From assembly GCA_946614095.1 (NCBI GenBank), contig CAMOGG010000001.1, positions 5,968-69,967 on the forward strand: a stretch of DNA of 64,000 bases, read 5' to 3'. Shown piece by piece: positions 31,123 through 63,346 of the stretch. Positions within the stretch are counted from its first letter, which is position 1; every line of letters begins with the position of its first letter. A program made the translations under genes and the position numbers. Under the pieces are notes generated by a model. The model was not told the origin of the DNA. It worked only from the letters and a program-made list of their open reading frames with translations, and made no database searches. This DNA comes from an uncultured Bacillales bacterium. Lineage in GTDB: Bacteria; Bacillota_I; Bacilli_A; RF39; UBA660.

Positions 31123-32613
31123 TTAATAGAAATTCATTGCGTTTAACGCAGTTCCTCCTGCATAAGGTGGACCAGTCCATATCGCGTAATGTAAGTGTAC
31201 ACCTGTTGCGAAACCAGTTTGTCCCATACCACCAATTGCTTGTCCCCTTTGTACTCTATCTCCAACTTTAACATATGTACAGCCACTACACAAATGGGCA
31301 TACATTGTATAGTAACCATTATCATGTCTAATTGTAATATATTGTCCGTTATCATATTTGTAACTTACGGTTACTACTTCTCCAGATTCTGCTGCGAAGA
31401 TATTAGAACCATAACCACATCCAGCTATATCTGTTCCATCATGTAATGTTCCCCATCTCCAACCAAAACCGGATGATACTGTTGAACAAGTTGCTGGCCA
31501 TCCAAACATGCCTTTTGTGACAATTAAATCTCCATAGCCACCACTCCAACCAGATACTGGTTGTTTTGTTCCCTTCACAACTATTTCTTCAACTGGTTCC
31601 TTTAATACTTCTTGTGAAATACTAACTAATGAAACAGTTTCTCCATTTACTTTTTGGACCTTTTGAGTTACTCGATTTAATCCTTTTATTCCTGCTTGTT
31701 TTACTTCAGAATAAGAAGTATATTGATTTGGATCTTCTTCAGTCTTTGTGGCATAATTTTGTTCTTCATCTTTTACTACATGATCTTCTTCTACAATGCT
31801 GATTTGTGGTTTTAAAATTCCTAATGTCACTACTTGTCCAGGGGATAAAAGACTATTTTCATCTTGTAATTCTGGGTTAGCTATTAAGAATTCTTCTACT
31901 GATATTTTATTATTAAATGCTACATCACTTATTGTATCTCCATCTTTAATGGTATATGTTGCTTGTGGTTCTACTGTACCAAATAATAAATATTTGCTTA
32001 AATTTTCCTCTGTTTGATAAATTGTTTTATCAACTGGAATTTTATCTTTCTTTATTGTTATTTTATTTCTAATATAGATATTATCTATGATGGTTCCTGT
32101 ATCTTTGATTTCTTTTTGAGTATCGTTGGCATAATTATTAAAATCTTCTGGGGAAATAAAGGACTGAACTGTTTTTTCTACTGATGTGGTAAAGACTTTC
32201 TTGTCCGTTACGTATAATGTGTTTGTCTTTGCTTTAATTGTCTTTCCTTCACTATCTTTACTATCAATTCCTTTGATTTTAATAGTATATCCGTTAATTG
32301 TGAAAGGAGAAATATCTTTAATTTCATCATAAATATCTTTATTTGACTTTAGATTATCTTCGAAGGTAATTTCTTTTACAATATCTAAATCTGTTGGAAC
32401 ATAAACTTTATTTACATTATACTTTTTCTTAATTTCAGCTTGTTTTTTATCGATATAGTTTTCAAAAGATTCTTTTGACTCAATTAAACCTAGTGATTTT
32501 CCTTTTAAATATACTCTATATACTGTTTTTGGAGTTTTTGTTATTTCTGTAAAGCCTGTTGAAAAGATGAAGGCTATTCCTAACATTATCATCATTATTA
32601 CTTTTTTATTCAC
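31123..32613 (-). CDS. Secreted peptidoglycan hydrolase: LysM domain plus C-terminal M23 metallopeptidase
   Basis: Signal/TM; LysM (TIKDGDTISDVAFNN…); M23 (HDGTDIA…HLHYAI). Confidence 0.7.
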   Translation of the reverse strand: MNKKVIMMIMLGIAFIFSTGFTEITKTPKTVYRVYLKGKSLGLIESKESFENYIDKKQAEIKKKYNVNKVYVPTDLDIVKEITFEDNLKSNKDIYDEIKDISPFTINGYTIKIKGIDSKDSEGKTIKAKTNTLYVTDKKVFTTSVEKTVQSFISPEDFNNYANDTQKEIKDTGTIIDNIYIRNKITIKKDKIPVDKTIYQTEENLSKYLLFGTVEPQATYTIKDGDTISDVAFNNKISVEEFLIANPELQDENSLLSPGQVVTLGILKPQISIVEEDHVVKDEEQNYATKTEEDPNQYTSYSEVKQAGIKGLNRVTQKVQKVNGETVSLVSISQEVLKEPVEEIVVKGTKQPVSGWSGGYGDLIVTKGMFGWPATCSTVSSGFGWRWGTLHDGTDIAGCGYGSNIFAAESGEVVTVSYKYDNGQYITIRHDNGYYTMYAHLCSGCTYVKVGDRVQRGQAIGGMGQTGFATGVHLHYAIWTGPPYAGGTALNAMNFY

Positions 32614-36796: not shown

Positions 36797-37537
36797 ATGA
36801 ATTTAATTGAAAAAAAATGCCCTAATTGTGGAGCAAGTTTGGAGTTTAGCGACACTGATAAGTCATGTAAATGTAATTATTGTCATCGAGCTTTTGAAAT
36901 TGAAAGAAATAATCAACCGGAAAATAGTGATTTAGATATATCTCAGCAATTTGTTTTAAATGAATTTAATGAAGTAACGAAGGGATTTAAACTATTTCAT
37001 ATGTTTTTTGTTATTATGTTTATTATTGTTGCTGCTTTTATTGGATTTTGTTTCTTTCAGGTATTTCGTGGATTTCGAGATGATAATATTGGCCCTTTTC
37101 AATCAGGACCATCTTATTATACGGAAGTTAGTGAACTTTCAAACGATGACTATGAAGATATCGATTTTGATGCTAGGGTGACTATTCAAGAAGGTGAAGG
37201 AGAGGAATCTTTCAGTATTGATGGAAATAGAAAAAGAGAGAAAGTATATGTAGCTTATAAAGATGATAGTTCTTATGTTATAGCTACTTATAAAGTTAAT
37301 TATTACAATTTTTTTCATAAAGATCAACGTTTTACAGTATATGTTCCTATGGTATATGAAAATATCAATAAAAAAGAATTTGTAGATAAATTTTCTAATC
37401 CACAAATTCAAGCTCCTGAATTTTATTTTGATTCTGAAAAGAAATCATATACTTATGGATATGGAAGCATGGATGACGTTTATAGTAATGTAATAAAACC
37501 TCTTGAAGAAAAAAATTATAATATTACAGAAAAATAG
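36797..37537 (+). CDS. Hypothetical protein with N-terminal CxxC…CxxC zinc ribbon and one TM segment
   Basis: KCPNCGASLEF…CKCNYCHRAF, followed by a hydrophobic helix. Confidence 0.4.
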   Translation: MNLIEKKCPNCGASLEFSDTDKSCKCNYCHRAFEIERNNQPENSDLDISQQFVLNEFNEVTKGFKLFHMFFVIMFIIVAAFIGFCFFQVFRGFRDDNIGPFQSGPSYYTEVSELSNDDYEDIDFDARVTIQEGEGEESFSIDGNRKREKVYVAYKDDSSYVIATYKVNYYNFFHKDQRFTVYVPMVYENINKKEFVDKFSNPQIQAPEFYFDSEKKSYTYGYGSMDDVYSNVIKPLEEKNYNITEK

Positions 37538-37560: not shown

Positions 37561-38367
37561 TTATTTGTAATAAAATCCTACAATATTTTGTCCTAATTTT
37601 GTATTATCTCCATGCACTGCTGCATAATGTGATGCATAATACTTATCGGTAGCTGTGTTAATTCCACTTACTTTAATTTCAGCTAATTCAAATTCTTCTA
37701 TTTGATTCATAATTGCTTTTAATAAATCAATGTGGTATCCATCATCTTTCTTTTCAATGGCATCTTTCCAAATTTCTTTAGTGGTTGCTATTTTTGGATA
37801 AGTGTCATATATATATGATTCTTTTTTGATATGACTTCCTATATATAAGTATATATCTCTTGGATTACTATGATATTTTTCTATCATTTTTTGAAGAAAT
37901 GCTTTTGGTAATCCTCTATTAATGTGATATATTCCACAATGAACTATTCCACTATACCCTTTTTTACGATCCTCTGCAATCAAAACAGGACAATCTGCCA
38001 TTCTATGTGCTAAGGCAACACCTTTGTAATTATCATCTATAAAAAGTATATCTGCTTCTATTTTTTCCATAAAATAATCTTCTTTTGTCATATATAAATT
38101 ATTTATAAAAATGTCTTTATTATCTTCATAAACATCATTATCTTCCATTTTTTGTTTCACTTGAAACATTTTTAGTCCTGAAAAGTTGTACTTATTCCCT
38201 AATCTAATTCTTGCATCTTTCACAGATTGAAATATTTGAATTTTCGTATAATCTTTTGGGTAAAAATTCTTACTGGAGGAGAATATTCCATCTTTTTGAT
38301 TTCCTTCAAAGATTCTAATTTTGCTTTTCATATTATACATTAAATCGAAAGTGGCAGATATCTCCAT
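37561..38367 (-). CDS. YfiH/PgeF-like (DUF152, purine nucleoside phosphorylase/laccase-domain) protein
   Basis: …HRMADCPVLIA… and …VHCGIYHINRG… resemble the DUF152 Cys/His motifs. Confidence 0.4.
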   Translation of the reverse strand: MEISATFDLMYNMKSKIRIFEGNQKDGIFSSSKNFYPKDYTKIQIFQSVKDARIRLGNKYNFSGLKMFQVKQKMEDNDVYEDNKDIFINNLYMTKEDYFMEKIEADILFIDDNYKGVALAHRMADCPVLIAEDRKKGYSGIVHCGIYHINRGLPKAFLQKMIEKYHSNPRDIYLYIGSHIKKESYIYDTYPKIATTKEIWKDAIEKKDDGYHIDLLKAIMNQIEEFELAEIKVSGINTATDKYYASHYAAVHGDNTKLGQNIVGFYYK

Positions 38368-41539: not shown

Positions 41540-42356
41540 TATGCACCTCTATCTGATTATATGGTATTTTGATTCCTGCTTTGTCAAAGGCTATTTTTAT
41601 TTCTTTTCTTAACAATCTCTCTACTTTTGCCTGTTTCATAGGCTTTGTTTCGACTACAACTCTATATATAACTGCCGAATCTGATAAAGAGTTTACTCCC
41701 CATAATTCAATATCTTTCGTAGTTTCCGGTATTGTTCCATTTAATTTTTTAAATAAATCTTCAAATGTTTTTTCTATGATTTCCTCTTTACACTCATAAG
41801 CCACAGCAATATCTACTACTGCTAGAGAATTATTATCACTGTAATTAATAATATTATCCATATAATGATTTGCTATTATCTTTGTAGCTCCTTTATAATT
41901 ACGAATTCTTGTTGTACGTAGTCCTATATATGTAACTTCTCCTTTAAAACCATCTATTTCTATAGTGTCCCCGACTTCATATTCTCCTTCGATAATAATA
42001 GAGAACCCTGCAATCAAATCTTTGGCTAAATCTTGTAATGCTAATCCAATTAATGCTGTTCCTATTCCTAATCCAGCTAATATAGATTTTACATTAACTC
42101 CATGAAGAGAAAGTATAGATAAAATGACTAAAACAATAATAATATATTTAAACAAATTAATAATTAGAGTACGAAAAGTATTTATTCTTTGAATCTGAGT
42201 AGTTTTTAATCCTTTCTTTCTATCTGTAGTTTTGATGATAACTCTTTTGATAATACGAAAAATTCCATATCCAATTATAATGTTTAAAATGGATAATACT
42301 ACTATTTTTATATTAATTGTCTGACCAAATATATGAATCATATTATTTTTCCTCAT
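41529..42356 (-). CDS. MscS-family mechanosensitive channel
   Basis: TM helices plus beta domain (…GDTIEIDGFKGEVTYIGLRTTRIRNYKG…). Confidence 0.7.
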   Translation of the reverse strand: MRKNNMIHIFGQTINIKIVVLSILNIIIGYGIFRIIKRVIIKTTDRKKGLKTTQIQRINTFRTLIINLFKYIIIVLVILSILSLHGVNVKSILAGLGIGTALIGLALQDLAKDLIAGFSIIIEGEYEVGDTIEIDGFKGEVTYIGLRTTRIRNYKGATKIIANHYMDNIINYSDNNSLAVVDIAVAYECKEEIIEKTFEDLFKKLNGTIPETTKDIELWGVNSLSDSAVIYRVVVETKPMKQAKVERLLRKEIKIAFDKAGIKIPYNQIEVHNGK

Positions 42357-43266
42357 CTAAATGCATATATTCTAATAATCGATTTAAATCATTTCCATTT
42401 ACAAAACTAATTTCTATCTTATTTTTCCTGATTAAAACTTTTGTTCCTAATTTTTCACTTAATTCATTTTGTAGATAAGTATATTCATTTACTACTTTTT
42501 CTTTTGGCTTTTGAGGATTTGTTTTAATAATCTGTGGCTCTTGTGTTAATTTTTCTAATTCGCGTACACTGATACCTTCTTCTTTGATTTTATTTACTAA
42601 CTCTTGCTGTTGCTTTTCGTTTTCTAATTTACTTAGTACTCTAGCATGTCCCATAGAAATATTTTTTTCATTTAATTCTTCTTGTATTTTATCTGGTAAG
42701 TTTAGTAAACCTAACATATTTGTAATATGACTTCTACTTTTTCCTAAACGTGCTGCTAGTTGTTCTTGTGTTAATGATAATGTCTCTTGTAACTTTTTAT
42801 ATGCTGTTGCTTCTTCAATAGCACTTAAATCTTCTCTTTGTAGATTTTCTAATAATGCTATTTCCATCATTTGTGTATCATTAAAGTCTCTAATAATCGC
42901 AGGTATCTCCTTTAATCCAGCTAGTTGTGATGCTTTTACTCTCCTTTCTCCAGCTATTATTTCATATCCTTTTATTGATTTTTTAACAATAATTGGTTGA
43001 AAAACGCCATGTTCTTTGATGGAACTTGCTAATTCATTTAAAGCTTCTTCATTAAATACTTTCCTTGGTTGATAGGGATTGCTTCTCAATTCAGCAATTT
43101 TAATCATAGTGATTTCTTCTTTTGGTGTTTCATTGACTATTTTTTCTTCTACAGCACTATAATCTAATACTTCGCTGCTAAATAATTCTTCTAATCCTTT
43201 TCCAAGTGCTCTTCTTTTTGGAATTCCACTTTCGGTTACTTCATTATTTGTTTCCATTTCTTTCAA
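42343..43266 (-). CDS. parB: Chromosome-partitioning protein ParB/Spo0J
   Basis: ParB box GERR, HTH GKSRSHITNMLGLL. Positions homologous to Caulobacter ParB R173/T179/A184/G201 are R/M/N/G. Confidence 0.9.
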   Translation of the reverse strand: MKEMETNNEVTESGIPKRRALGKGLEELFSSEVLDYSAVEEKIVNETPKEEITMIKIAELRSNPYQPRKVFNEEALNELASSIKEHGVFQPIIVKKSIKGYEIIAGERRVKASQLAGLKEIPAIIRDFNDTQMMEIALLENLQREDLSAIEEATAYKKLQETLSLTQEQLAARLGKSRSHITNMLGLLNLPDKIQEELNEKNISMGHARVLSKLENEKQQQELVNKIKEEGISVRELEKLTQEPQIIKTNPQKPKEKVVNEYTYLQNELSEKLGTKVLIRKNKIEISFVNGNDLNRLLEYMHLDEEK

Positions 43267-44032
43267 TCACTTCCTTTGCTAGATTGATATATGCTTCAGA
43301 TCCTCTACTCTTTGGATCATATGCAACGATTGGTTCTCCATGTGATGGTGCTTCTGTTAGACGAACTAATCGTGGAATAATTGTGTTATAAACTTTTTCT
43401 TTAAAAAACTTTCGTATATCCTCCACTACTTCAAATCCTAGATTCGTTCTAGAGTCTAACATTGTTAATAAAACTCCTTCAATGTCTAATGTTGGATTTA
43501 AACTTTTTTGTGCTAACATAATTGTTTTTAATAATTGTGTTATTCCTTCTAAGGCAAAGAATTCACATTGAACTGGTATTATTACAGAATTAGATGCTGT
43601 TAACGCATTGGTTGTAATCACTCCAAGAGATGGAGGACAATCAATGATGATATAGTCAAAACTGTCTCTTATATCCATTAATCTTAATTTTAATTGTTCT
43701 CCCTTTTGAAATCCTACTTCTGTTCTACTTTTTTCTGTTAATTCTATATCTAATCCAGCTAAATTTATTGTTGCTGGAATCACATATAGATTTTTATATT
43801 TTGTTTTTATCATGGCTTCTGTAATATTACATTCACCAATTAATACATCATATATACTTCTTTCTATCTCTCCTTTATTAATTCCCACACCAGTAGTTGT
43901 ATTTCCTTGAGGATCTAAGTCTATTAATAATACTTTTTTACCTAATACTGCTAATGATGCTGAAAGATTGATGCTGGTTGTAGTTTTTCCTACACCACCT
44001 TTTTGATTTACTAATGATATAACCTTTCCCAT
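43244..44032 (-). CDS. parA: ParA/Soj partition ATPase
   Basis: Deviant Walker A NQKGGVGKTTT. Confidence 0.95.
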   Translation of the reverse strand: MGKVISLVNQKGGVGKTTTSINLSASLAVLGKKVLLIDLDPQGNTTTGVGINKGEIERSIYDVLIGECNITEAMIKTKYKNLYVIPATINLAGLDIELTEKSRTEVGFQKGEQLKLRLMDIRDSFDYIIIDCPPSLGVITTNALTASNSVIIPVQCEFFALEGITQLLKTIMLAQKSLNPTLDIEGVLLTMLDSRTNLGFEVVEDIRKFFKEKVYNTIIPRLVRLTEAPSHGEPIVAYDPKSRGSEAYINLAKEVIERNGNK

Positions 44033-44133
44033 CTAATCACCCATTTTCCATTTTCTTTTTTATTGTATCAAATAAACGATTTTTTTGAAATGATTTTCGA
44101 CAAAAAAAGTAGACTTTTTCAGTTTATCTACTT

Positions 44134-45489
44134 TTATATTTGAGTCTTATCTATTTTGATAATGATTTGATAAGATTTTTCAAAGTCCATTTCATCTGTT
44201 CCTACCGTAATTCCATGGCTTTCTAAATCTTTTACTAGCTCTCTAATTTTACTTGTTGCTTCTTCTATCGTATATTTATCTGAATTACTACCTATTGAAG
44301 AATTTATTTCAAATCTTTTATCTTCTTGGATTGGATTTATTAAGTTATTATCCATTGGGTTTACTGTATCCATAGGATTTACTATACTAGATGGTAATTC
44401 GATAGAAGATAAATCTGATGTTTGAAAATAATCAGAGGACTGATTTATTACGTCATCTACTGGATCTGTTTTTACTATTTTTTCAGCTGGTGTTATGAAA
44501 TCAGTGGATGGTACTGATGAAGTTGGATTTCCTAGATTTAATAAACTATCTAAGGCTGCTCCTCCTGTATCAGTATTAATATCTGATGTATTTTCTTTTA
44601 CACTATTTATATCAATCGAAGTAACAGAACTTGGAATATCTAGATTTTTTTCATCCTCTTCTTCGTCTTCCTCATCTTTTCCTATTTCTCCATAATTTAT
44701 AAATTTACCCATTGGCATGTCCTCTCCATCTGGCGGAGCAATTGTCACTTTTCCATAATTTGAATTATCTTCTGGTAATTCGGCAGTTGGAATTAGTGGA
44801 TTGCTGTTTACAAATGCACTTACAGAAGCTTCTTGTGTCTCCTGAGGTGCTGTAAAAGTTTGATTTTCTTTTGGTTCTTTAGGATATAGTTGTTTGATTT
44901 CATCCTCTAAATTACGTACACTCATCTTTGTTTCTATTACTTTTTTTACCATTTCTTTTTGTTTTTCTGCATCAGGTATATTTAGTAATGATCTTGCGTG
45001 TCTTTCCGATATTTGTTCCTTTAATAATGCTTCTTGAATGGTATCAGGTAAAGATAATAGTCTAATTTTATTAGCCACCGCAGATTGACTTTTACCCATT
45101 GTTTTAGCTAACTCTTCTTGCGTCATTTGATCTAATTCTAAGATTTTTTGATATGTTCTAGCTTCTTCTATTGGATTTAAATTTTTTCTTTGTAAGTTTT
45201 CTAATAAGGCTACTTTAGAGCTTTCTTTATCATCTAAATCTCTAATGATAGCTGGAATTTTTGTTAATCCTGCTAAAGCTGATGCTTTGTATCTTCTTTC
45301 TCCAGCAATTATTTCATATTTTCCATTTACATTTCTAACAATGATGGGTTGAATTACTCCGTGTTCCTTGATAGAGACTGCTAATTCTTTTAATGCTCTT
45401 TCGTCAAATACTTCTCTAGGTTGGAATCTATTAGGAATAATATCATCTAAGTATAATTGTACTACTTCATCTTTATCATCTGGAAACAT
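44134..45489 (-). CDS. noc: Noc-like ParB paralogue with a ~250-aa low-complexity C-terminal extension
   Basis: ParB N-domain (GERR), HTH GKSQSAVANKIRLL…ISERHAR. Specificity positions are Q/K/S/R (Noc type is Q/K/K/R). Located in the Bacillus noc position (rsmG-noc-parA-parB). It lacks the N-terminal amphipathic helix of B. subtilis Noc, and the C-terminus is S/T/N/P/E-rich with NPMDTVNPMD repeats. GAGGGA RBS sits 5 nt upstream. Confidence 0.65.
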   Translation of the reverse strand: MFPDDKDEVVQLYLDDIIPNRFQPREVFDERALKELAVSIKEHGVIQPIIVRNVNGKYEIIAGERRYKASALAGLTKIPAIIRDLDDKESSKVALLENLQRKNLNPIEEARTYQKILELDQMTQEELAKTMGKSQSAVANKIRLLSLPDTIQEALLKEQISERHARSLLNIPDAEKQKEMVKKVIETKMSVRNLEDEIKQLYPKEPKENQTFTAPQETQEASVSAFVNSNPLIPTAELPEDNSNYGKVTIAPPDGEDMPMGKFINYGEIGKDEEDEEEDEKNLDIPSSVTSIDINSVKENTSDINTDTGGAALDSLLNLGNPTSSVPSTDFITPAEKIVKTDPVDDVINQSSDYFQTSDLSSIELPSSIVNPMDTVNPMDNNLINPIQEDKRFEINSSIGSNSDKYTIEEATSKIRELVKDLESHGITVGTDEMDFEKSYQIIIKIDKTQI

Positions 45490-45609
45490 TGCAATCCCTC
45501 ACTTCTTTTTATTCTTTTATTTATCCTATATTATCATTATAATTGATTTTTTATATTCTTTCAACTAATTTTTACGAAAAAAAGTATGTATTTTTTACAT
45601 ACTTTCTCA

Positions 45610-46239
45610 TTATTTCATTACAATTAGACTTCTTTTACTATTTTCAATAGGTAGAAAAAAGCTTTCTATTTTTACAATTTTATATTTTTTATTTAATTTT
45701 CTTTTTACTTTTTCTGATAATTCAGATTCAATATTCCCTTTCATTGCAATAAAGTATCCTTCTTTTGATACTAAGTGCATTGTATAAGTTACTAATTTTT
45801 CTATATTAGCTACTGCTCTAGATGTAACTACATCAAATTTTCCTTGATAATCTTCTCCTCTGATATGAACGGCTTCTATTTCTTCTAAGTGTAATTCTTT
45901 TATTACTTCCTTTAAATAATTTATCCTTTTTTGAAGAGAGTCAATTAATGTTACTTTCAAATGAGGAAACATTATTTTTAATACAATTCCTGGAAAACCT
46001 GCTCCCGTACCTACATCACATAAAGTATCAATTTGACTAAAATCTACTACTTTGACAATTGTTAAACTATCATAAAAATGTTTTAAATAAACATCTTTTT
46101 TATCTATTATTCTAGTTAAATTTATTTTTTTGTTCCATTCTTTTAGTAGTTGGTAAAACTTCTCTAATTGTGTTAATTGCTCATCTGTAGGATTCACTCC
46201 TAGATCTTTTACATATTTTATAAATTCTTCTTTATTCAT
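45610..46239 (-). CDS. rsmG: 16S rRNA m7G527 methyltransferase RsmG (GidB)
   Basis: SAM motif DVGTGAGFPG. Confidence 0.9.
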   Translation of the reverse strand: MNKEEFIKYVKDLGVNPTDEQLTQLEKFYQLLKEWNKKINLTRIIDKKDVYLKHFYDSLTIVKVVDFSQIDTLCDVGTGAGFPGIVLKIMFPHLKVTLIDSLQKRINYLKEVIKELHLEEIEAVHIRGEDYQGKFDVVTSRAVANIEKLVTYTMHLVSKEGYFIAMKGNIESELSEKVKRKLNKKYKIVKIESFFLPIENSKRSLIVMK

Positions 46240-48109
46240 TTTTGCTATACTCCTTCTTTAAATATACGGAAAGAATGGATATATCAGAAGGATTTACTCC
46301 ACTAATTCTAATAGCTTGGGCTATTGTTGTTGGTCTTACTTCTTTTAATTTTTGTCTTGCTTCACTTGCTATATTTTTTATTTTATCGTAGTCTATGTCT
46401 TTTGGAATTTGTTTTTTTTCTAATTTGATTAGTTTTTCTGCTTCTTTATAAGATTTTTTAATATAGCCTTCATATTTTAAATAGATTTCTACTTGTTCTT
46501 TTATTTCTTCTCTGTATGGAAATTCTATAAAGTTTTCTAAAAAAGAGACTGTTATTTCTGGACGACGTAGTAGTTGTTCTAAGGTCATTGTGGATGTTGG
46601 AAGTGGAATATTTTTTTCATGAAATATTTTCTCTACTTCTTTTGTTATCTTTAATTTTTTTTCTCCTAACCAAGATAGACAATCTTTTATACCTTGTTCC
46701 TTTTGATTTAATCTTTCTAGTTGTTCTTCATTAATTAATCCTACTTCATAACCATATCTTCTTAATCTTTGATCTGCATTATCACTTCTTAATAATAATC
46801 TAAATTCTGCTCGACTTGTTAACAATCTATAAGGATCTCTGATTCCTTTTGTTATAAGGTCATCTATTAATACTCCAATGTAGGCTTCATTTCTTTTTAA
46901 TATTAGAGGTTCTTTTCCTTCTAGTTTTAAAGATGCGTTAATTCCTGCCATTAATCCTTGACATGCTGCTTCTTCATAACCACTGGTTCCATTAATTTGT
47001 CCTGCTGTAAATAAGTTATTTAAAATTTTTGTCTCTAATGATGCATTTAATTGAGTTGGATAAATTGCATCATATTCTATTGCATATCCATATTTTATTA
47101 TTTTAGCATTTTCAAATCCTGGTAAGCTATGAACCATTAATTCTTGTATTTCAGGGGGCATTGATGTTGAAAAACCTTGAAGATACATATCGTCATAATA
47201 TTTACTTTCTGGTTCAATAAATAATTGATGTCTTTCTTTATCTGCAAATCTTACTACTTTATCTTCTATAGATGGACAATATCTAGGACCAATACCTTCA
47301 ATATCATCTAGAGCTCCATACATGGATGATTTATTTAGATTTTCTCTTATTATTCTATGAGTTTCTTCTGTTGTATAAGTTAAGTGACAAGGTATTTGTT
47401 CTTCTATTTTATATTGTGGTTCTAGGTCAAAACTAAATGTTAAGTACTTATCATCACCTGGTTCTATTCTTGTTTTTGAGAAATCTATTGTTTTTCTATC
47501 AATTCTTTGAGGAGTTCCCGTTTTTAATCTTTTTATTTCAAATCCATATTCTTTTAATTTATCACTTAGATGAAGTGATGGTTTTTCTCCATGTGGACCT
47601 TGTCTAGTTCTCGTGGCGCCTACTAAGATATCTGCCTTTAAATATGTTCCTGTAGTTAAAATAACGATTTTTGATTGAATTTGTTCTCCATCTTCTAGAA
47701 TTATTCCTTTTACTGTATTATTATCAACTATTAAATCTTCAACCATTGCCTCTTTTATTTCTAAATTATCTAGTGAATTTAGTGTATTTAACATTTCTTT
47801 TGGATATGCTACTTTATCTCCTTGTGCACGTAGGGATTGTACTGCTGGACCTTTGGCAGAATTTAACATTTTAATCTGAAGATGTGTTTTATCGGCAATT
47901 TTCCCCATGATTCCGCCTAAAGCATCTATTTCACGTACTACTATTCCTTTGGCACTTCCTCCAATATGAGGATTACATGGCATATCTGCAATATTTTTAA
48001 TATTTCCAGTTACTAATAAAGTTTTATGTCCTTTGAATGAAGACGCATAAGCTGCTTCACATCCGGCATGGCCTCCCCCTACTACTATAATGTCGTACAT
48101 GTTATTCAC
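46232..48109 (-). CDS. mnmG: tRNA uridine-5-carboxymethylaminomethyl synthesis enzyme MnmG (GidA)
   Basis: FAD motif IVVGGGHAGCEAA. 625 aa. Confidence 0.95.
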   Translation of the reverse strand: MNNMYDIIVVGGGHAGCEAAYASSFKGHKTLLVTGNIKNIADMPCNPHIGGSAKGIVVREIDALGGIMGKIADKTHLQIKMLNSAKGPAVQSLRAQGDKVAYPKEMLNTLNSLDNLEIKEAMVEDLIVDNNTVKGIILEDGEQIQSKIVILTTGTYLKADILVGATRTRQGPHGEKPSLHLSDKLKEYGFEIKRLKTGTPQRIDRKTIDFSKTRIEPGDDKYLTFSFDLEPQYKIEEQIPCHLTYTTEETHRIIRENLNKSSMYGALDDIEGIGPRYCPSIEDKVVRFADKERHQLFIEPESKYYDDMYLQGFSTSMPPEIQELMVHSLPGFENAKIIKYGYAIEYDAIYPTQLNASLETKILNNLFTAGQINGTSGYEEAACQGLMAGINASLKLEGKEPLILKRNEAYIGVLIDDLITKGIRDPYRLLTSRAEFRLLLRSDNADQRLRRYGYEVGLINEEQLERLNQKEQGIKDCLSWLGEKKLKITKEVEKIFHEKNIPLPTSTMTLEQLLRRPEITVSFLENFIEFPYREEIKEQVEIYLKYEGYIKKSYKEAEKLIKLEKKQIPKDIDYDKIKNIASEARQKLKEVRPTTIAQAIRISGVNPSDISILSVYLKKEYSKNE

Positions 48110-48470: not shown

Positions 48471-49832
48471 CTACTTTCCTAAACAAAACCTTGAAAACAT
48501 TTCATCTAGTAATTCTTCTTCATATGTTGATCCATTAATTGTACCTAATTCTTCCCATATGTTTTTGATATCTAATTCTATCATATCAATTGGCAAATTA
48601 TCTTTTAGACTTTGTTCAATCTCTTCTACTCTTTTTAAACATTTTTTTAGAATACTAATACTTCGTGAATTACTTAAGTATGTTGGATCCTTTGTTTCTA
48701 TTTCATCAATATTAAACATTTCAACTATTTTATTTTTTAATTCTTCTATTCCTTTATTCTCAATAATACTTAAGTCAATTATTCTTGATTGATTAATCTT
48801 TAATTCATTTCTATCAAATTTTGATTCTAAATCATTTTTATTGATTAAGATAAGATAATTCTTATTTTTTATTTTACTTAATAATTCTTTTATATCTTGA
48901 GTTAATTCTTCATTATTATTAATCATAAATAATACTAAATCTGATTCATCCATGATTTTTAAGCTTTTCTCTACTCCTATTGCTTCTATTTTATCTTCTG
49001 TATCTCTAATACCAGCAGTATCTATCATATTTAATATTATTCCATTGATTGATATTTGCCCTTCTACTATGTCACGTGTTGTTCCGGCAATATCTGTCAC
49101 AATGGCTTTATCTTCTTCTAATAAGGCATTTAAAAGTGAACTTTTTCCGACATTTGGTCTTCCAATTATAGAAGTTTTTATTCCTTCTTTGATTATTTTA
49201 CCATTTTGGGATTCTTTTAATATTTTATTAATTTTTGTTTTTAAATTTGTTATTTTGGGAATTAATAAATCATTTGTAATGACATCTACATCATCATATT
49301 CTGGATAGTCTATATTTACATTAATATTACTAATAATTTGAACCATATCACTTCTTAATTCATTTATTAAATTAGAAGTTTTTCCTCCTATTTGATTGGC
49401 AGCCATTTTTCTTTGTGTATCTGTTTTGGAATCAATCATATCCATTACAGCTTCTGCTTCGAGTAAATCTATTCTTCCATTTAAAAATGCCCTTTTTGTA
49501 AACTCTCCTGGTTCTGCCATACGACATCCATTTTCTAATAATAGTTCTAATACTCGATTTGTTGGGGCAATTCCACCGTGAGTATTAATTTCTACTGTGT
49601 CTTCTGCTGTAAAAGTTTTAGGAGCTCTCATAATGGATACTAATACTTCATCTATTACTTCATTATTATCTATTATATGCCCATAATTTATGGTATGAGA
49701 TTCTACTTTTGTAAGATCTTTTCCTTGAAATATTTTATTCACAATTTTTATAGAATCTTCACCACTCACTCTTATAATAGCAATAGCCCCTACTCCTTGA
49801 CTGGTAGCAATGGCACAAATAGTATCATTCAC
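48471..49832 (-). CDS. mnmE: tRNA modification GTPase MnmE (TrmE)
   Basis: G-domain motifs, C-terminal CxGK. The track ORF starts at 49868, but AAAGGAGG lies 7 nt upstream of the in-frame GTG at 49830-49832, giving a canonical (M)NDTICAIATSQGVGAI N-terminus. Confidence 0.85.
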   Translation of the reverse strand: MNDTICAIATSQGVGAIAIIRVSGEDSIKIVNKIFQGKDLTKVESHTINYGHIIDNNEVIDEVLVSIMRAPKTFTAEDTVEINTHGGIAPTNRVLELLLENGCRMAEPGEFTKRAFLNGRIDLLEAEAVMDMIDSKTDTQRKMAANQIGGKTSNLINELRSDMVQIISNINVNIDYPEYDDVDVITNDLLIPKITNLKTKINKILKESQNGKIIKEGIKTSIIGRPNVGKSSLLNALLEEDKAIVTDIAGTTRDIVEGQISINGIILNMIDTAGIRDTEDKIEAIGVEKSLKIMDESDLVLFMINNNEELTQDIKELLSKIKNKNYLILINKNDLESKFDRNELKINQSRIIDLSIIENKGIEELKNKIVEMFNIDEIETKDPTYLSNSRSISILKKCLKRVEEIEQSLKDNLPIDMIELDIKNIWEELGTINGSTYEEELLDEMFSRFCLGK

Positions 49833-50019
49833 AGTATCCCTCCTTTTGTCTGCATTATTATAGCACATTTATTAAAAATATCCATATATTTCTACTCCAT
49901 AATTTCCCATATTATTATAATTTTATCAAACTTATCTTATTATCTTATACAAAAAGAATATTATTTCTTGTAAAAAGTGTAAAACTATTTATTATTCAAT
50001 ATTTACGTTATAATAGATT

Positions 50020-59287: not shown

Positions 59288-61750
59288 ATGGATAGATTAG
59301 AAAAAAATAATATTGTGCAAGAAGTAAAAGATTCGTTTTTAGAGTATTCCATGAGTGTTATTGTGGCACGTGCTCTTCCTGATTTGCGTGATGGATTAAA
59401 GCCTGTACATAGACGTATTTTGTACTCTATGTATGAATCTGGCTATACTCCAGATAAACCTCATAAAAAAAGTGCAAGAATTGTTGGGGATGTAATGGGA
59501 AAATATCATCCTCATGGTGATTCTTCTATTTATGAGGCAATGGTAAGAATGGCTCAGGACTTTTCATATCGATATATGTTAGTAGATGGACATGGAAACT
59601 TTGGAAATATTGAAGGTTATGGAGCAGCTGCCATGCGTTATACGGAATCTAGACTTGCTAAGATATCATTGGAATTACTTCGTAATATCAATAAAGATAC
59701 TGTTAATTTTGTTCCTAATTTTGATGAAAGTGAAAGAGAACCAGAAGTTTTACCTTCACGTTTTCCTAACATTTTAGTGAATGGAACAACAGGTATTGCG
59801 GTTGGTATGGCTACGAATATTCCTCCTCATAATTTAGGAGAAGTAATTGATGGATGTGTTGCTTATATTGATAATCCTGAAATTGAATTAGATGAATTAA
59901 TGCAATATATTAAAGGACCAGACTTTCCTACAGGTGCTATTATTTTAGGAAATAGTGGAATTAGAAAGGCATATGAAACAGGTAGGGGAAGTATTACAAT
60001 TCGAAGTAAAGCAACTATTGAGGAAGAACACGGTAGACAACAAATTATTATTGATGAAGTACCATATGGTGTAAATACATTAGAATTAAAAAATAAAGTT
60101 GCAGAACTTGTTCATAATAAAACAATTGAAGGTATTGCTGATTATCATTCTGATTTAAAAAATGGTATTAAAATTACCATTACTTTAAAAAGAGATGCTA
60201 ATGCTCAGGTAGTATTAAATAAACTTTATAAACATACTTCATTTCAAACTACCTATGGAATTATATTCTTGATGTTAGATCAAGGTGTACCAAAGACTTT
60301 AGGATTAAAAGATATTATTTCTAAATATATTGAATATCAAAAAGAGGTTATTATTCGTCGTACTAAGTTTGATTTGGATGTTGCGGAAAAAAGAGTTCAT
60401 ATATTAGAAGGATTAAAAATTGCTTTAGATAATATTGATGCTGTTATTAAAGTAATTCGTGGATCTAATTCTGATGATGAAGCACGTACTGGATTGATGG
60501 AAGGGTTCAAATTAACGGAAATCCAAGCTAATGCAATCTTAGAAATGAGATTACGCCGTTTAACGGGCTTAGAGCGTGAAAAGATTGAAAATGAATTAAA
60601 TGATTTATTAAAAACAATTGCTGACTTAAAAGCTATTTTAGCTAGTGATGAGAAGATATTAGAGGTCATTAAGAATGAATTGTTAGAAATTAAGCAAAAA
60701 TATGGTGATGAAAGACGTACTAATATTGATATGACGGCAATTGAATATATTGAAGATGAATCTTTGATTCCAGAAGAGGATGTTATTATTAACTTAACGA
60801 AGAAAGGATATATTAAGAGACTTAGAACTGATACATATAAAACTCAAAATAGAGGTGGAGTTGGTATCAAAGGAATGTCCACGAATGAAGAAGATTTTGT
60901 TGAACATTTAATTACTATGAATACTCATGATTTTATATTATTCTTTTCTAATCGTGGTAGAGTTTATCGTATGAAGGGTTATGAAATTCCTGAATTTTCA
61001 AGACAATCAAAAGGATTACCAATCATTAATTTATTACCACTTGAAAAAGATGAGAACATAAGTTCGATAATTAGTATAAAACGTAATGATGATTTTACTA
61101 AATATTTAATGTTTGCAACTAAAAATGGTATTGTTAAACGTACACCTATTGAAGAATTTGATAATATTCGAAAGGGTGGGAAAATTGCTATTGTTTTAAA
61201 AGAAAATGATGAGTTAATCAGTGTTAAAAGCACTTGTGGAAAAAATGAAATTGTAATCGGAGCAAGTAATGGTAGATTAGTTCGTTTTGATGAAAATGAA
61301 GTTCGTTCTATGGGAAGAAGTAGTTCTGGTGTTAAAGGAATGGATCTTGATGGTAGTATTGTTGTAGGTGCTGAAGTCGTTTCTCCTGGTCATTTGGTTT
61401 TAATTGTAACCGAGAAAGGATATGGAAAGAAAACTTTAATTGATGAATATCGTTTAACTCATAGAGGTAGTAAAGGAGTTAAAGCACTTAATGTTACAGA
61501 TAAAAATGGTATGATGGCTTCTCTTAAATGTTTAAATCCATCAGCCAATGAAATTTTGGATCTTATGATTATGACAAATAGTGGAGTTATTATAAAATTA
61601 CCATTAGATCAAGTTTCTACTTTAAAACGTGCAACACAAGGTGTTAGACTAATTAATCTTAAAGAAGAACAGATAGTTTCTACTGTAGCACTTGTGGAAA
61701 AAGAAAATATTAATAACGAAGAATCTATTGAAGAAGAAAAAAAAGATTAA
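59288..61750 (+). CDS. gyrA: DNA gyrase subunit A
   Basis: Active-site region …AAMRYTE…. ATG at 59288 has AGGAGG 9 nt upstream. The track ORF begins at TTG 59282. Confidence 0.97.
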
Positions 61751-61935
61751 TTTATTAAGAAAAATACGTATTGATATAGTACGTATTTTTTTATGTCTTT
61801 GATTAAGAAAATAATAAAAATACCTTCTTTGCGGGTGAGACTTGAAGAAGCAATAGCGTTAAGAAAAAAATAAATCCTCCTTTGATAGAAATTGGTCTGT
61901 CAATCGAAATCTAAAATCAAATGATGATTTATTTT

Positions 61936-62350
61936 ATGAGACGAAAAAACGTTGATGAAAGTTTCTTTATCTCATACGAGATGGAATTGTTAATATCACA
62001 TGTTTTTCACTACAAAACATCATAGAAAAGTAATATATAGAAAATTTCGCAGAGATATAGAAGTGTATCTAAGAAGACTATGTGATTATAAAGGAGTTGA
62101 GATAGTTGAAGTGAATGTTTGCTCCGATCATATTCACATGTTAGTAAAGATTTCACCTAAAATTACTGTTTTTTTTTTATGGAATATTAAAAAGGTAAGA
62201 GTAGTTTAATGATATTTGAAAAGCATGCTAATCTAAAATATTATTATGAAAATCGACATTTTTGAGCAGAAAGATATTACGTTAGTACTGTAGAGTCTAG
62301 TAAAACTACAATAAAACGTTATATTCAAAATCAGGATGTGGAGAATCAGA
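61936..62350 (+). mobile_element. Degraded IS200/IS605-family tnpA (Y1/HUH transposase) with frameshifts and in-frame stops
   Basis: Fragments …VEIVEVNVCSDHIHMLVKISPKITV… (HxH HUH motif) and …NLKYYYENRHF*AERYYVSTVESSKTTIKRYIQNQ… match IS200 TnpA but are interrupted. Confidence 0.6.
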
Positions 62351-62465
62351 TATAAGATAGAAAAAGTATGGAATAATATAAGAGACTGTTACGGGTAAGT
62401 AAGAGTGATAAAGGTGTTTGACAGTCTAAAAAAATATGAAATGGTAGCTTCCAGTGTTTGGCCTT

Positions 62466-62499
62466 TTAAAAAATCCACCCTTAAAAGGGTGGGTTTTTA
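62466..62499. terminator. GC-rich perfect hairpin tccaccctt-aaaa-gggtgga flanked by A and T runs (bidirectional terminator, or IS200/IS605 subterminal hairpin)
   Basis: Direct reading. Confidence 0.5.
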
Positions 62500-62519
62500 T
62501 TAGTATTAATAAAAAACAA

Positions 62520-63165
62520 GTTTTGTGAACCTATATAGAGAGAAGAAAAAAATATTTCCCGGGAAATAATTTGGGAAATATAACTAATAACTAAAAAATA
62601 TATAATAATCAAAAATGATGATGTTTCACGTGAAACTATATAGAAAGAAGAAATAAATATTTCCCGGGAAATAATTTGGGAAATAAAACTAATAAATAAA
62701 GTATACATAATAATCAAAAATGGAGATGTTTCACGTGAAACTATATAGAGAGGAGAAAAAAATATTTCCCGGGAAATAATTTGGGAAATAAAACTAATAA
62801 ATAAAGAATATATAATTATCAAAAATGAAGATGTTTTACGTGAAACTATATAGAAAGAAGAAAAAAATATTTCCCGGGAAATAATTTGGGAAATAAAACT
62901 AATAAATAAAGTATACATAATAATCAAAAATGGAGATGTTTCACGTGAAACTATATAGAGAGGAGAAAAAAATATTTCCCGGGAAATAATTTGGGAAATA
63001 TAACTAATAAATAAAGGATATATAATAATCAAAAATGAAGATGTTTCACGTGAAACTATATAGAGAGGAGAAAAAATATTTCCCGGGAAATAATTTGGAA
63101 AATATAACTAATAAATAAGTGATACATAATAATCAAAAATGAAGATGTTTCATGTGAAACTATAT
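62520..63165. repeat. Tandem array of six ~105-bp units, each with one parS-like palindrome (GTTTCACGTGAAAC) and one perfect Noc-binding-site palindrome (TATTTCCCGGGAAATA)
   Basis: parS-like cores at 62623, 62728, 62833 (GTTTTACGTGAAAC), 62938, 63043 and 63147 (GTTTCATGTGAAAC), plus a degenerate copy at 62520. NBS-like 16-mers at 62553, 62658, 62763, 62868, 62973 and 63077. Periods are 105/105/105/105/104 bp. An extra TTTGGGAAAT half-site follows each NBS. Units are about 90% identical. Confidence 0.9.
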
Positions 63166-63269
63166 ATATGAGGTGAAATATATTCTAATTATTATTCACT
63201 TTTTTTTAGTTATTTATTATAAACTATTATTTTATTTACTTTTATTATTTTTTGTATTAAAATAATTTT

Positions 63270-63346
63270 GTGCAATGAAAGTGATTGAAACAGGTCAGGA
63301 TTGGAAAATAGCAGCCTTAAGATCCTCCTTTCATGTGCACTTTTTA
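63270..63346 (+). ncRNA. ffs: Small signal-recognition-particle RNA (4.5S/scRNA-type, ~77 nt) with intrinsic terminator
   Basis: Contains the conserved domain IV motif CAGGUCAGG-auu-GGAA-aau-AGCAGCC (GNRA tetraloop). 5' GUGCAAUGAAAG pairs with 3' CUUUCAUGUGCAC, followed by a T-run. The ffs-tadA-dnaX neighbourhood is conserved in Bacilli. Confidence 0.7.

Follow-up and report, generated by a model that had tools for sequence, protein, structure and literature searches.

A Noc-like ParB paralogue without the membrane-targeting helix, and its predicted sites beside parS, in the origin region of uncultured gut Bacilli

The DNA analysed here is a 64,000-nt window of contig CAMOGG010000001.1 from an uncultured Bacillales bacterium, and all positions are given in window coordinates. 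In addition to a ParB (Spo0J), the window encodes a Noc-like protein of the same family on the minus strand at 44134..45489 (451 aa plus stop; supported by the open reading frame (ORF) list, Pfam, TIGR04285, solved-structure matches and Foldseek). This protein combines a CTPase domain, a helix-turn-helix (HTH) domain with residues of the type that recognizes Noc-binding sites (NBS), and a Noc-type dimerisation domain, and it lacks the N-terminal helix that targets Noc to the membrane. Perfect NBS are found in the window in a single array, interleaved and phased with parS, on the origin side of the chromosome. Because the helix is lost, no substitute anchor has been found and NBS are concentrated with parS by the origin, the classical Noc mechanism is unlikely here. 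The same three observations favour a reading, considered rather likely, in which the protein would be a Noc-derived, NBS-loaded cytidine triphosphate (CTP) clamp acting beside ParB at a composite origin-proximal site, without tethering the chromosome to the membrane. It is thus probable that "Noc" in a large group of uncultured gut bacteria does a different job.

The Noc-side paralogue and its missing membrane helix

The closest solved structures to the Noc-like protein in HMMER comparisons are Geobacillus Noc (215 bits) and B. subtilis Noc (197 bits), whereas ParB/Spo0J structures score lower, at 138-182 bits. For the neighbouring ParB the order is reversed, with B. subtilis Spo0J the best match at 219 bits and Noc at 164 bits. 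Since the best structure matches are opposite, the pair in the window consists of the Noc-side and the ParB-side descendants of an old duplication. Over 208 aa covering the N-terminal domain and the DNA-binding domain, they share 51% identity (BLASTP). An AlphaFold model of the Noc-like protein, built on 99 homologues, has Geobacillus Noc (7nfu) as its best Foldseek match, with a TM score of 0.81, and its DNA-binding domain superposes on that of the Noc-NBS complex 6y93 with TM scores of 0.90-0.92 and root mean square deviations of 1.1-1.6 Å. These comparisons bear out the first-pass annotation of a Noc-like ParB paralogue, and confirm from sequence a ParB-family CTPase with an HTH domain on the Noc side of the family. 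The predicted layout is that of the ParB/Srx-fold clamp superfamily, ParB_N and HTH_ParB followed by a dimerisation domain, with the first two domains placed as follows.

45190..45468, minus strand: N-terminal CTPase (ParB/Srx) domain, residues 8-100, with FQPR and GERRYK (Pfam ParB_N, E 5e-35)
45187-45201, minus strand: ENLQR, residues 97-101, just C-terminal to the CTPase domain; N98 corresponds to Noc N121
44887..45186, minus strand: HTH DNA-binding domain, residues 102-201 (Pfam HTH_ParB), with Q135, K141, S146 and R163

R66 in GERRYK and N98 in ENLQR align to Noc R89 and N121, which bind CTP and were tested in PMC8429893. In both the Noc-like protein and the neighbouring ParB of the window, GERRxR, a motif otherwise conserved in other ParB and Noc proteins, has a lysine in place of its third arginine. 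The 99 closest Noc-like homologues all have R65, R66 and K68, and the Noc substitution R91A, at the matching position, retained function (PMC4331003). The N-terminus reads MFPDDKDE, and no ParA-interacting LG(R/K)GL peptide is present in it.

The protein belongs to a widespread family. A scan of one genome per species yielded 80 loci (L001-L080; 957 kb around noc, 6 kb either side), each with a long Noc-like gene (379-557 aa). In 75 of the 80, wherever the locus reaches far enough, a ~300-aa ParB gene follows ~0.9 kb further downstream, a noc-parB spacing equal to the gap filled by parA in the window. The best 120 matches in a database clustered at 90% are all full-length proteins of 417-533 aa, and the best 150 cluster representatives at 50% identity are nearly all 335-798 aa long and match from the first few residues; across the 80 species and these 150 clusters the ORF is intact and the catalytic and DNA-contact residues are invariant. 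All of these derive from uncultured low-GC Bacilli of the gut or rumen, which may fall in GTDB order RFN20; the labels given to them include Erysipelotrichaceae, Tenericutes, Mycoplasmatota, Candidatus Onthousia (placed by NCBI in Bacilli incertae sedis), Candidatus Faecimonas and Clostridium sp. CAG:417.

That the gene is an assembly or annotation artefact, either a frameshift fusion or a protein whose true start lies upstream, has nothing but its unusual length to recommend it and is scarcely credible. A frameshift-fused ORF, raised in the first-pass annotation for the C-terminal part, is excluded because the full-length architecture, from the MYPD/MFPD start to the C-terminus, is conserved in hundreds of independent assemblies; moreover the C-terminus is itself homologous to that of Noc, and two sources record a protein with 100% identity (P0001). 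The minus-strand sequence before the start reads AAGTGAGGGATTGCA-ATG and includes an in-frame TGA at 45499-45501, four codons 5' of the ATG, which makes an N-terminal extension impossible and disposes of an upstream start codon. The ORF, the GAGGG of the ribosome-binding site and this stop agree with the 451-aa length and the MFPDDKDE start previously assigned.

Specificity for parS or NBS resides in four positions, numbered 173, 179, 184 and 201 in Caulobacter ParB (Jalal et al. 2020, PMC7383237). The corresponding residues were assigned from HMMER alignments to the Noc and Spo0J structures and by BLASTP to the neighbouring ParB, with residue offsets (+6, +11, +28) that are consistent across the structure and BLASTP alignments. 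In the order 173/179/184/201 they are

Noc type: Q, K, K, R
Noc-like protein: Q135, K141, S146, R163
neighbouring ParB: R, M, N, G

and this HTH alignment gives the same residues, Q/K/S/R and R/M/N/G, as had been read at first pass. All six DNA-contact residues common to ParB and Noc in the list of PMC7383237 are kept in the Noc-like protein (Q124, G132, K133, S134, N140 and R166). Q173, K179, K184 and R201 turn Caulobacter ParB from parS to NBS (Jalal et al. 2020, PMC7383237), and a single lysine at 179 or 184 suffices to license Q173 plus R201 (PMC7383237). The HTH is therefore of NBS type as judged by its residues, and the earlier prediction of NBS-type specificity is supported, both because one lysine is enough and in view of the perfect NBS in the window. 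The long protein has QK[S/A/G/T/N/V]R in 80 of the 80 species genomes, and QKxR is found in 116 of 118 parseable representatives, x never being K. Since classical Nocs "almost invariably" have lysine at position 184 (PMC7383237), QKxR with another residue there is a signature of the subfamily. The adjacent parseable ParBs of the 80 genomes always have R at 173, and G at 201 in all but three.

The Noc N-terminus is extremely conserved in all homologues examined and is necessary for function (Adams et al. 2015, PMC4331003); NocNΔ10 does not bind liposomes, and the membrane helix is needed for Noc function (PMC8429893). In the HMMER alignment residue 5 of the Noc-like protein corresponds to residue 24 of Geobacillus Noc, and because the alignment begins there, both the 10-aa membrane-targeting helix alpha1 and alpha2 are absent. 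The membrane-targeting helix is likewise absent in 342 family members; for their tails preceding PNRFQPR the medians are 18 residues and a net charge of -2, and under 1% of the tails reach +2 or more. The absence of the Noc N-terminal amphipathic helix, noted at first pass for this one protein, is thus established by the alignment, the upstream stop and the family as a whole.

Substitute anchors were sought and rejected. The linker has no cationic amphipathic window that could represent a relocated membrane-targeting sequence, and a stretch resembling a transmembrane segment occurs in just one of 343 family members. In that member, P0132 (473 aa), the stretch is hydrophobic and C-terminal (ALGITEKILFKAFVLLLFI), and the protein may have arisen by read-through or fusion, or may represent a rare variant with a membrane anchor.

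NBS and parS sites on the origin side

The predicted sites of the window form a tandem array in which every unit contains a perfect 16-bp NBS, TATTTCCCGGGAAATA, and a parS-like sequence, TGTTTCACGTGAAACT.

62525..63166, no strand assigned: NBS/parS array, 6.1 copies of a 105-bp unit, between gyrA with an IS200 remnant and tadA

All six perfect NBS 14-mers of the window (ATTTCCCGGGAAAT) lie in this array, against 0.32 expected at up to 2 mismatches, so that NBS are indeed present in the array as first annotated. Centre to centre, each NBS follows a parS by 36 bp and precedes the next by 69 bp, and the 105-bp unit corresponds to ten helical turns. The stretch 60086-63345 recurs identically in a separate metagenome contig record (L084).

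Some further sequences accompany these sites. Each NBS is followed by ATTTGGGAAAT, the NBS minus its central CCC (62568-62581 and the same offset in every unit); as a conserved element it was rejected, being found in just 2 of 114 array loci, and it is therefore lineage-specific. Between gyrA and the array, at 62000-62400, is the remnant of a decayed insertion: a truncated IS200-type (Y1_Tnp) transposase of 69 aa that aligns to profile positions 11-65 of 121. The sole parS-like sequence outside the array, TGTTTCACTTGAAACA (1 mismatch), is at 38153-38168, within a Cu-oxidase_4 (PgeF-like) ORF (37561-38367) about 4 kb beyond parB.

Related genomes show the same concentration of sites. When up to 1 mismatch is allowed, the 957 kb around noc in the 80 species contain only 3 NBS in total, and none of the 80 has a parS within 6 kb of parAB. 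A metagenome scan with the pattern of an NBS followed by a parS core 41-71 nt later retrieved 114 stretches (L081-L194), all of 22-33% GC, with medians of 2.5 NBS and 4 parS and with 3 or more NBS in 57. These array loci encode homologues of TadA (90 loci), GyrA (55) and GyrB (29), and the sites occupy the spacers flanking tadA, beside gyrA. The NBS core 10-mer occurs 287 times in the 732 kb of array loci vs 2 times in the 957 kb of noc loci, and the parS core 408 times vs none; of the 331 NBS in the array loci, all but 8 lie within 2 kb of the cluster. The parS sites of this clade seem to gather at the tadA/gyrA cluster rather than in or around parB.

Adjacent NBS and parS centres are separated by about 26, 36, 47, 58, 68 or 78 bp. 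Phases were determined for 98 non-redundant loci with a 10.5-bp period, residual relatedness among the loci being not fully removed:

NBS-parS: phase 0.45, opposite helix faces
parS-parS: phase 0.01, same helix face
NBS-NBS: phase 0.92, nearly same helix face

The phasing of NBS with parS persists when only those distances are counted that the scan pattern did not impose (n=144, R=0.42, Rayleigh p about 1e-11). The NBS/parS array is probably a finding in its own right. It bears as well on the suggestion, made at first pass from the protein, of a different way of localising; this is plausible, and the stronger clue to it, only touched on at first pass, is the clustering of NBS and their phasing with parS near oriC throughout the clade.

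The conserved pairing of QKxR with NBS and of R..G with parS is good evidence from the genomes that the two proteins have separate sites, NBS for the QKxR protein and parS for the R..G ParB. The alternative is direct action on ParB, in which the Noc-like protein binds parS or both sites, or enters mixed complexes, and regulates or competes with ParB loading. The interleaving of sites 26-78 bp apart, the 51% identity over the N-terminal and DNA-binding domains and the net charge of -34 of the Noc-like protein would fit such a role. However, Q173 and R201 are residues that switch specificity to NBS, and in a deep mutational scan the paths from parS to NBS avoided dual-specificity variants (PMC7383237); a parS binder would also have no need of conserved, distinct and perfect NBS. 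Heterodimers formed through the C-terminal domains are unlikely since these domains in the two proteins have no detectable similarity (hhalign probability 0.3), and direct action on ParB is altogether very improbable.

A more serious, though still unlikely, alternative is that the protein remains a classical nucleoid-occlusion factor, with indirect membrane or divisome contact through a partner of the linker motifs or through a cryptic weak segment; NBS would then be dispersed and the array would be one strong site among them. In its favour are the Noc descent, the NBS-type residues and the intact CTP motifs, as well as conserved linker motifs that could be partner sites, among them the moderately amphipathic predicted helix FITPAEKIVKTD. 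The sampled DNA is origin-proximal only, and a LysM-G5-M23 peptidase encoded in the window suggests a walled cell in need of division control. Against this, the helix that is necessary for function in Noc (PMC4331003, PMC8429893) is absent in 342 members, and no cationic amphipathic or hydrophobic segment is present; the density of NBS outside the clusters is very low in the about 1.7 Mb sampled; and strict interleaving and anti-phasing with parS would play no part in such a mechanism. An NBS-loaded clamp acting beside ParB therefore remains the favoured reading.

The acidic linker, the C-terminal domain and the gene context

The Noc-like protein carries an insertion between the HTH and the C-terminal domain.

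44284..44877, minus strand: inserted acidic linker, residues ~205-402 (AlphaFold, composition, no Pfam match)
44349..44383, minus strand: 18-bp-period tandem duplication in the linker (NPMDTV NPMD), 1.9 copies (Tandem Repeats Finder)
44134..44283, minus strand: Noc-type C-terminal (dimerisation) domain, residues 403-451 plus stop (TIGR04285, AlphaFold)

The first-pass annotation had taken the end of the protein for a ~250-aa C-terminal extension, which has to be corrected: it is an internal insertion of ~190-200 aa followed by a Noc-type C-terminal domain. The last 60 aa match TIGR04285 (nucleoid_noc) at positions 218-255 with E 0.004, and when residues 212-400 are deleted the alignment covers positions 1-255 of 255 and the score rises from 292.2 bits for the native protein to 305.2 bits, the curated cutoff being 315. 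Last-60-aa segments match the same model in 30 of 35 diverse family members (best E 2.4e-8). AlphaFold predicts a helix at 408-424 and strands at 429-435 and 440-446, with a predicted local distance difference test (pLDDT) score of 80-88 over 408-446. Because a Noc-type domain follows the insertion, the novelty is the long linker and not the tail. A ParB-type C-terminal domain was rejected on the hhalign comparison with the C-termini of the clade's ParBs given above, and a PDB profile search with the C-terminal domain returned spurious helical matches alone, with no Noc C-terminal domain structure among them. The suggestion that the protein multimerises in a different way consequently finds no support, since the dimerisation domain is retained.

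The linker itself is predicted to be disordered. The AlphaFold pLDDT is below 50 at residues 205-220, 254-290, 321-324, 344-353 and 363-402 and about 50-63 elsewhere in the linker, with three short helices only; structure prediction of the tail thus gives mostly low confidence over the linker and the confident helix and two strands at 408-446. Neither Pfam (E up to 10) nor the AlphaFold fold revealed a known domain in it. The composition is as originally described, acidic and rich in S/T/N/P: residues 212-400 contain 37 D+E vs 9 K+R and 84 S/T/N/P/Q/G, and the insertion has a net charge of -29 in a protein that is very acidic overall (net -34). Conserved motifs in the linker are FVNxNPLIPTA, NYGKVTIAPPEGE, KFINYGE, an acidic run, ALDSLLNLG, FITPAEKIVKTD and DYFxTxDLSSIELP. 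That ALDSLL could be a copy of the ParA-binding LGKGLEELF peptide of ParB has no support, a hidden Markov model of the clade's ParB N-peptide giving at most 6.2 bits on the linkers vs up to 5.5 on shuffled linkers. The NPMDTVNPMD repeat of the first-pass annotation is real, and its second copy is lacking in all 14 aligned homologues.

The linkers of 223 family members, with a median of 228 aa, all carry a negative net charge (-8 to -64). A [DE]L[DE]xLL-like motif is found in 102 of them vs 12.8 in shuffled sequences, a KFIxYGE-like motif in 53 vs 1.2; other motifs occur only in the window's own subclade. These figures, together with the sites, bear on whether the protein is no more than a drifting ParB paralogue in reduced AT-rich genomes, in which the membrane-targeting helix was lost, a functionless low-complexity linker expanded neutrally and little activity, or mere NBS binding, is left. 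Neutral drift would account for the range of linker lengths (118 to >500 aa), for the abundance of N, S, T, P, D and E that a GC content of 28% would lead one to expect, for the many subclade-specific motifs and for the recent 18-bp duplication as a sign of ongoing slippage. Yet the ORF and the catalytic and DNA-contact residues have been kept in the 80 species and the best 150 clusters, every one of the 223 linkers has kept its negative charge, and several motifs are far above their shuffled frequency. Moreover, 114 loci have retained perfect, phased NBS beside parS, which speaks for selection on protein and site as a pair, and drift alone is an improbable explanation.

The gene lies in the position of Bacillus noc, as noted at first pass: the order rsmG, noc-like, parA, parB, with mnmG and mnmE upstream, is confirmed by Pfam, and the complete minus-strand order is yidC, jag, mnmE, mnmG, rsmG, noc-like, parA, parB. 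An ORI cluster including noc has been inferred for the ancestor of the Firmicutes (PMC8136486). The MscS-type channel, DUF951, AbgT transporter, ychF, ssb and dnaB genes are found 3' of parB. On the plus strand are dnaA, dnaN, recF, gyrB and gyrA, then the IS200 fragment, the 105-bp tandem array and tadA; gyrB and gyrA are named from position and size. The window as a whole is a typical Firmicute origin region of 28% GC. Genes and signals around noc are

48471-49868, minus strand: mnmE
46232-48109, minus strand: mnmG
45610-46239, minus strand: rsmG (GidB; Pfam)
45536-45564, minus strand: promoter-like site TTGAAA-17-TATAAT in the rsmG-noc spacer (consensus scan, 11/12 matches)
45496-45500, minus strand: Shine-Dalgarno sequence GAGGG, 6 nt before the noc-like ATG (read from sequence)
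44100..44133, minus strand: weak AT-rich hairpin AAGTAGA...TCTACTT with a T-run, directly after the noc-like stop (read from sequence)
43244..44032, minus strand: parA (soj; Pfam AAA_31 and CbiA, ParA-type matches)
42343..43266, minus strand: parB (spo0J), 307 aa, specificity residues R/M/N/G, with the ParA-interaction-type peptide KRRALGKGLEELF at its N-terminus

The promoter and Shine-Dalgarno entries are consensus matches alone and no proof of function. The hairpin may, with low confidence, be a terminator before parA; a terminator scan that requires 3 G-C pairs did not call it. Elsewhere in the window a LysM-G5-Peptidase_M23 protein is encoded at 31123-32613, and its presence suggests that the organism has peptidoglycan; some related families are predicted to be wall-less (PMC10868615). 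A 246-aa ORF at 36797-37537 on the plus strand, between ssb and the PgeF-like gene, has no Pfam match at E up to 1e-5.

A possible origin-region clamp and its relation to known systems

In the favoured reading, dimers of the Noc-like protein would nucleate on the few NBS of one cluster by tadA/gyrA, about 8 kb from dnaA, shut into CTP-dependent sliding clamps and spread locally, while ParB would load side by side with them at parS, interleaved with NBS on the opposite face of the helix. The two proteins together may mark or organise the origin region, neither coating the chromosome arms nor pulling them to the membrane. The acidic linker would then form the wall of the clamp lumen. Two roles seem likeliest for the linker: it may provide a larger, non-sticky and DNA-repelling lumen that keeps the clamp mobile amid crowded ParB, a property that would be useful because the next ParB-occupied parS is only 26-78 bp away; instead of this or in addition, its short conserved motifs may recruit a partner. 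A further step, which is possible rather than probable, is that in this large clade Noc has been turned from a membrane-tethering nucleoid-occlusion factor into the second part of a two-clamp origin site, with phased parS and NBS and an oversized lumen or docking linker; such a site would set the position of origins, or govern division or replication, through a mechanism not yet described for any ParB-family protein. A literature search, itself incomplete, found no description of an anchor-less Noc or of NBS/parS arrays.

Several points weigh against the favoured reading. A membrane link mediated by a partner would restore the classical Noc role. The protein falls under the curated Noc cutoff of TIGR04285 even without its linker (305.2 vs 315 bits), and since position 184 is never lysine in the clade, unlike in nearly all classical Nocs, the predicted affinity or specificity may differ from that of Noc. 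Most linker motifs are confined to a subclade, and because of this, and because AT-rich genomes often have insertions rich in N, S and T, the linker may in large part be mere spacer. The sampled DNA is all origin-proximal: the window, flanks of 6 kb on each side of noc, and stretches of at most ~15 kb around each array. The window is the only fetched locus with both gene and array, no noc locus and array locus overlapping at 90% identity or more except for L084, which is identical to the window; and as the scan pattern required one NBS-parS pair, it shows that the clusters are common and not that they are universal with the protein.

Noc is the textbook nucleoid-occlusion factor of the Firmicutes, and its membrane helix is deemed universally conserved and essential (PMC4331003, PMC8429893). 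Here is a very large natural Noc-like family that has kept the NBS-type DNA-binding domain, the CTP motifs and the Noc dimerisation domain and has no membrane helix. If the proposed reading is true, "Noc" stands for more than one function, and evolution has redeployed the ParB/Noc duplication at least twice; the distinction between NBS and parS, so far a topic of mutagenesis, would gain a natural setting in which clamps load tens of bp apart, and the length and charge of a clamp linker would become experimentally accessible variables. An abundant uncultured gut lineage would also provide a simple, sequence-defined model of chromosome organisation. The main interest for the ParB/Noc field lies in the remodelling of the protein together with the conserved, phased NBS/parS origin cluster.

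Among known systems the nearest is Noc of B. subtilis and Geobacillus thermoleovorans (TIGR04285; PDB 7NFU, 7NG0, 7OL9, 6Y93), with which the protein shares its genomic position, a CTP-binding N-terminal domain with equivalents of R89 and N121, an NBS-type HTH with Q173, K179 and R201, a C-terminal domain, about 50% identity over 200 aa and the cognate 16-bp NBS in the genome. It differs from Noc in the absence of alpha1 and alpha2, in never having lysine at 184 and in scoring below the family cutoff. The linker of B. subtilis Noc is short and basic, whereas that of the Noc-like protein is ~200 aa long and acidic (118-500+ aa in the family). The NBS seen in the origin-proximal DNA sampled are also differently arranged, being clustered and phased with parS near oriC rather than scattered around the chromosome as in B. 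subtilis (PMC8429893).

With chromosomal ParB/Spo0J (PDB 6SDK, 6T1F) the protein has in common the superfamily, the fold, the CTP clamp motifs, 51% identity and predicted loading sites in the same cluster. It is set apart by its residues at positions 173 and 201 (Q and R, against R and G in ParB), by the lack of the ParA-stimulating KRRALGKGL peptide, by an unrelated C-terminal domain and by a linker that greatly exceeds that of ParB in length and acidity. Another ParB-family CTP clamp with a predicted disordered linker between the DNA-binding and C-terminal domains is KorB of plasmid RK2, and it acts via a partner and not via membrane binding or ParA-type segregation alone; its 52-aa disordered linker forms the clamp lumen and may enclose DNA-bound KorA (bioRxiv 10.1101/2024.02.16.579611). 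However, KorB is plasmid-borne, uses OB sites, represses transcription, has the shorter linker and is only 28-31% identical to the Noc-like protein. MipZ-ParB and, in cocci, RocS and RicO offer a functional analogy only, as origin-proximal factors beside parS that position origins or exclude division, and RicO sites in S. aureus also cluster with parS near oriC (bioRxiv 10.64898/2026.03.06.710092). These proteins are unrelated to the Noc-like protein, and RocS and RicO, unlike it, bind the membrane by amphipathic helices.

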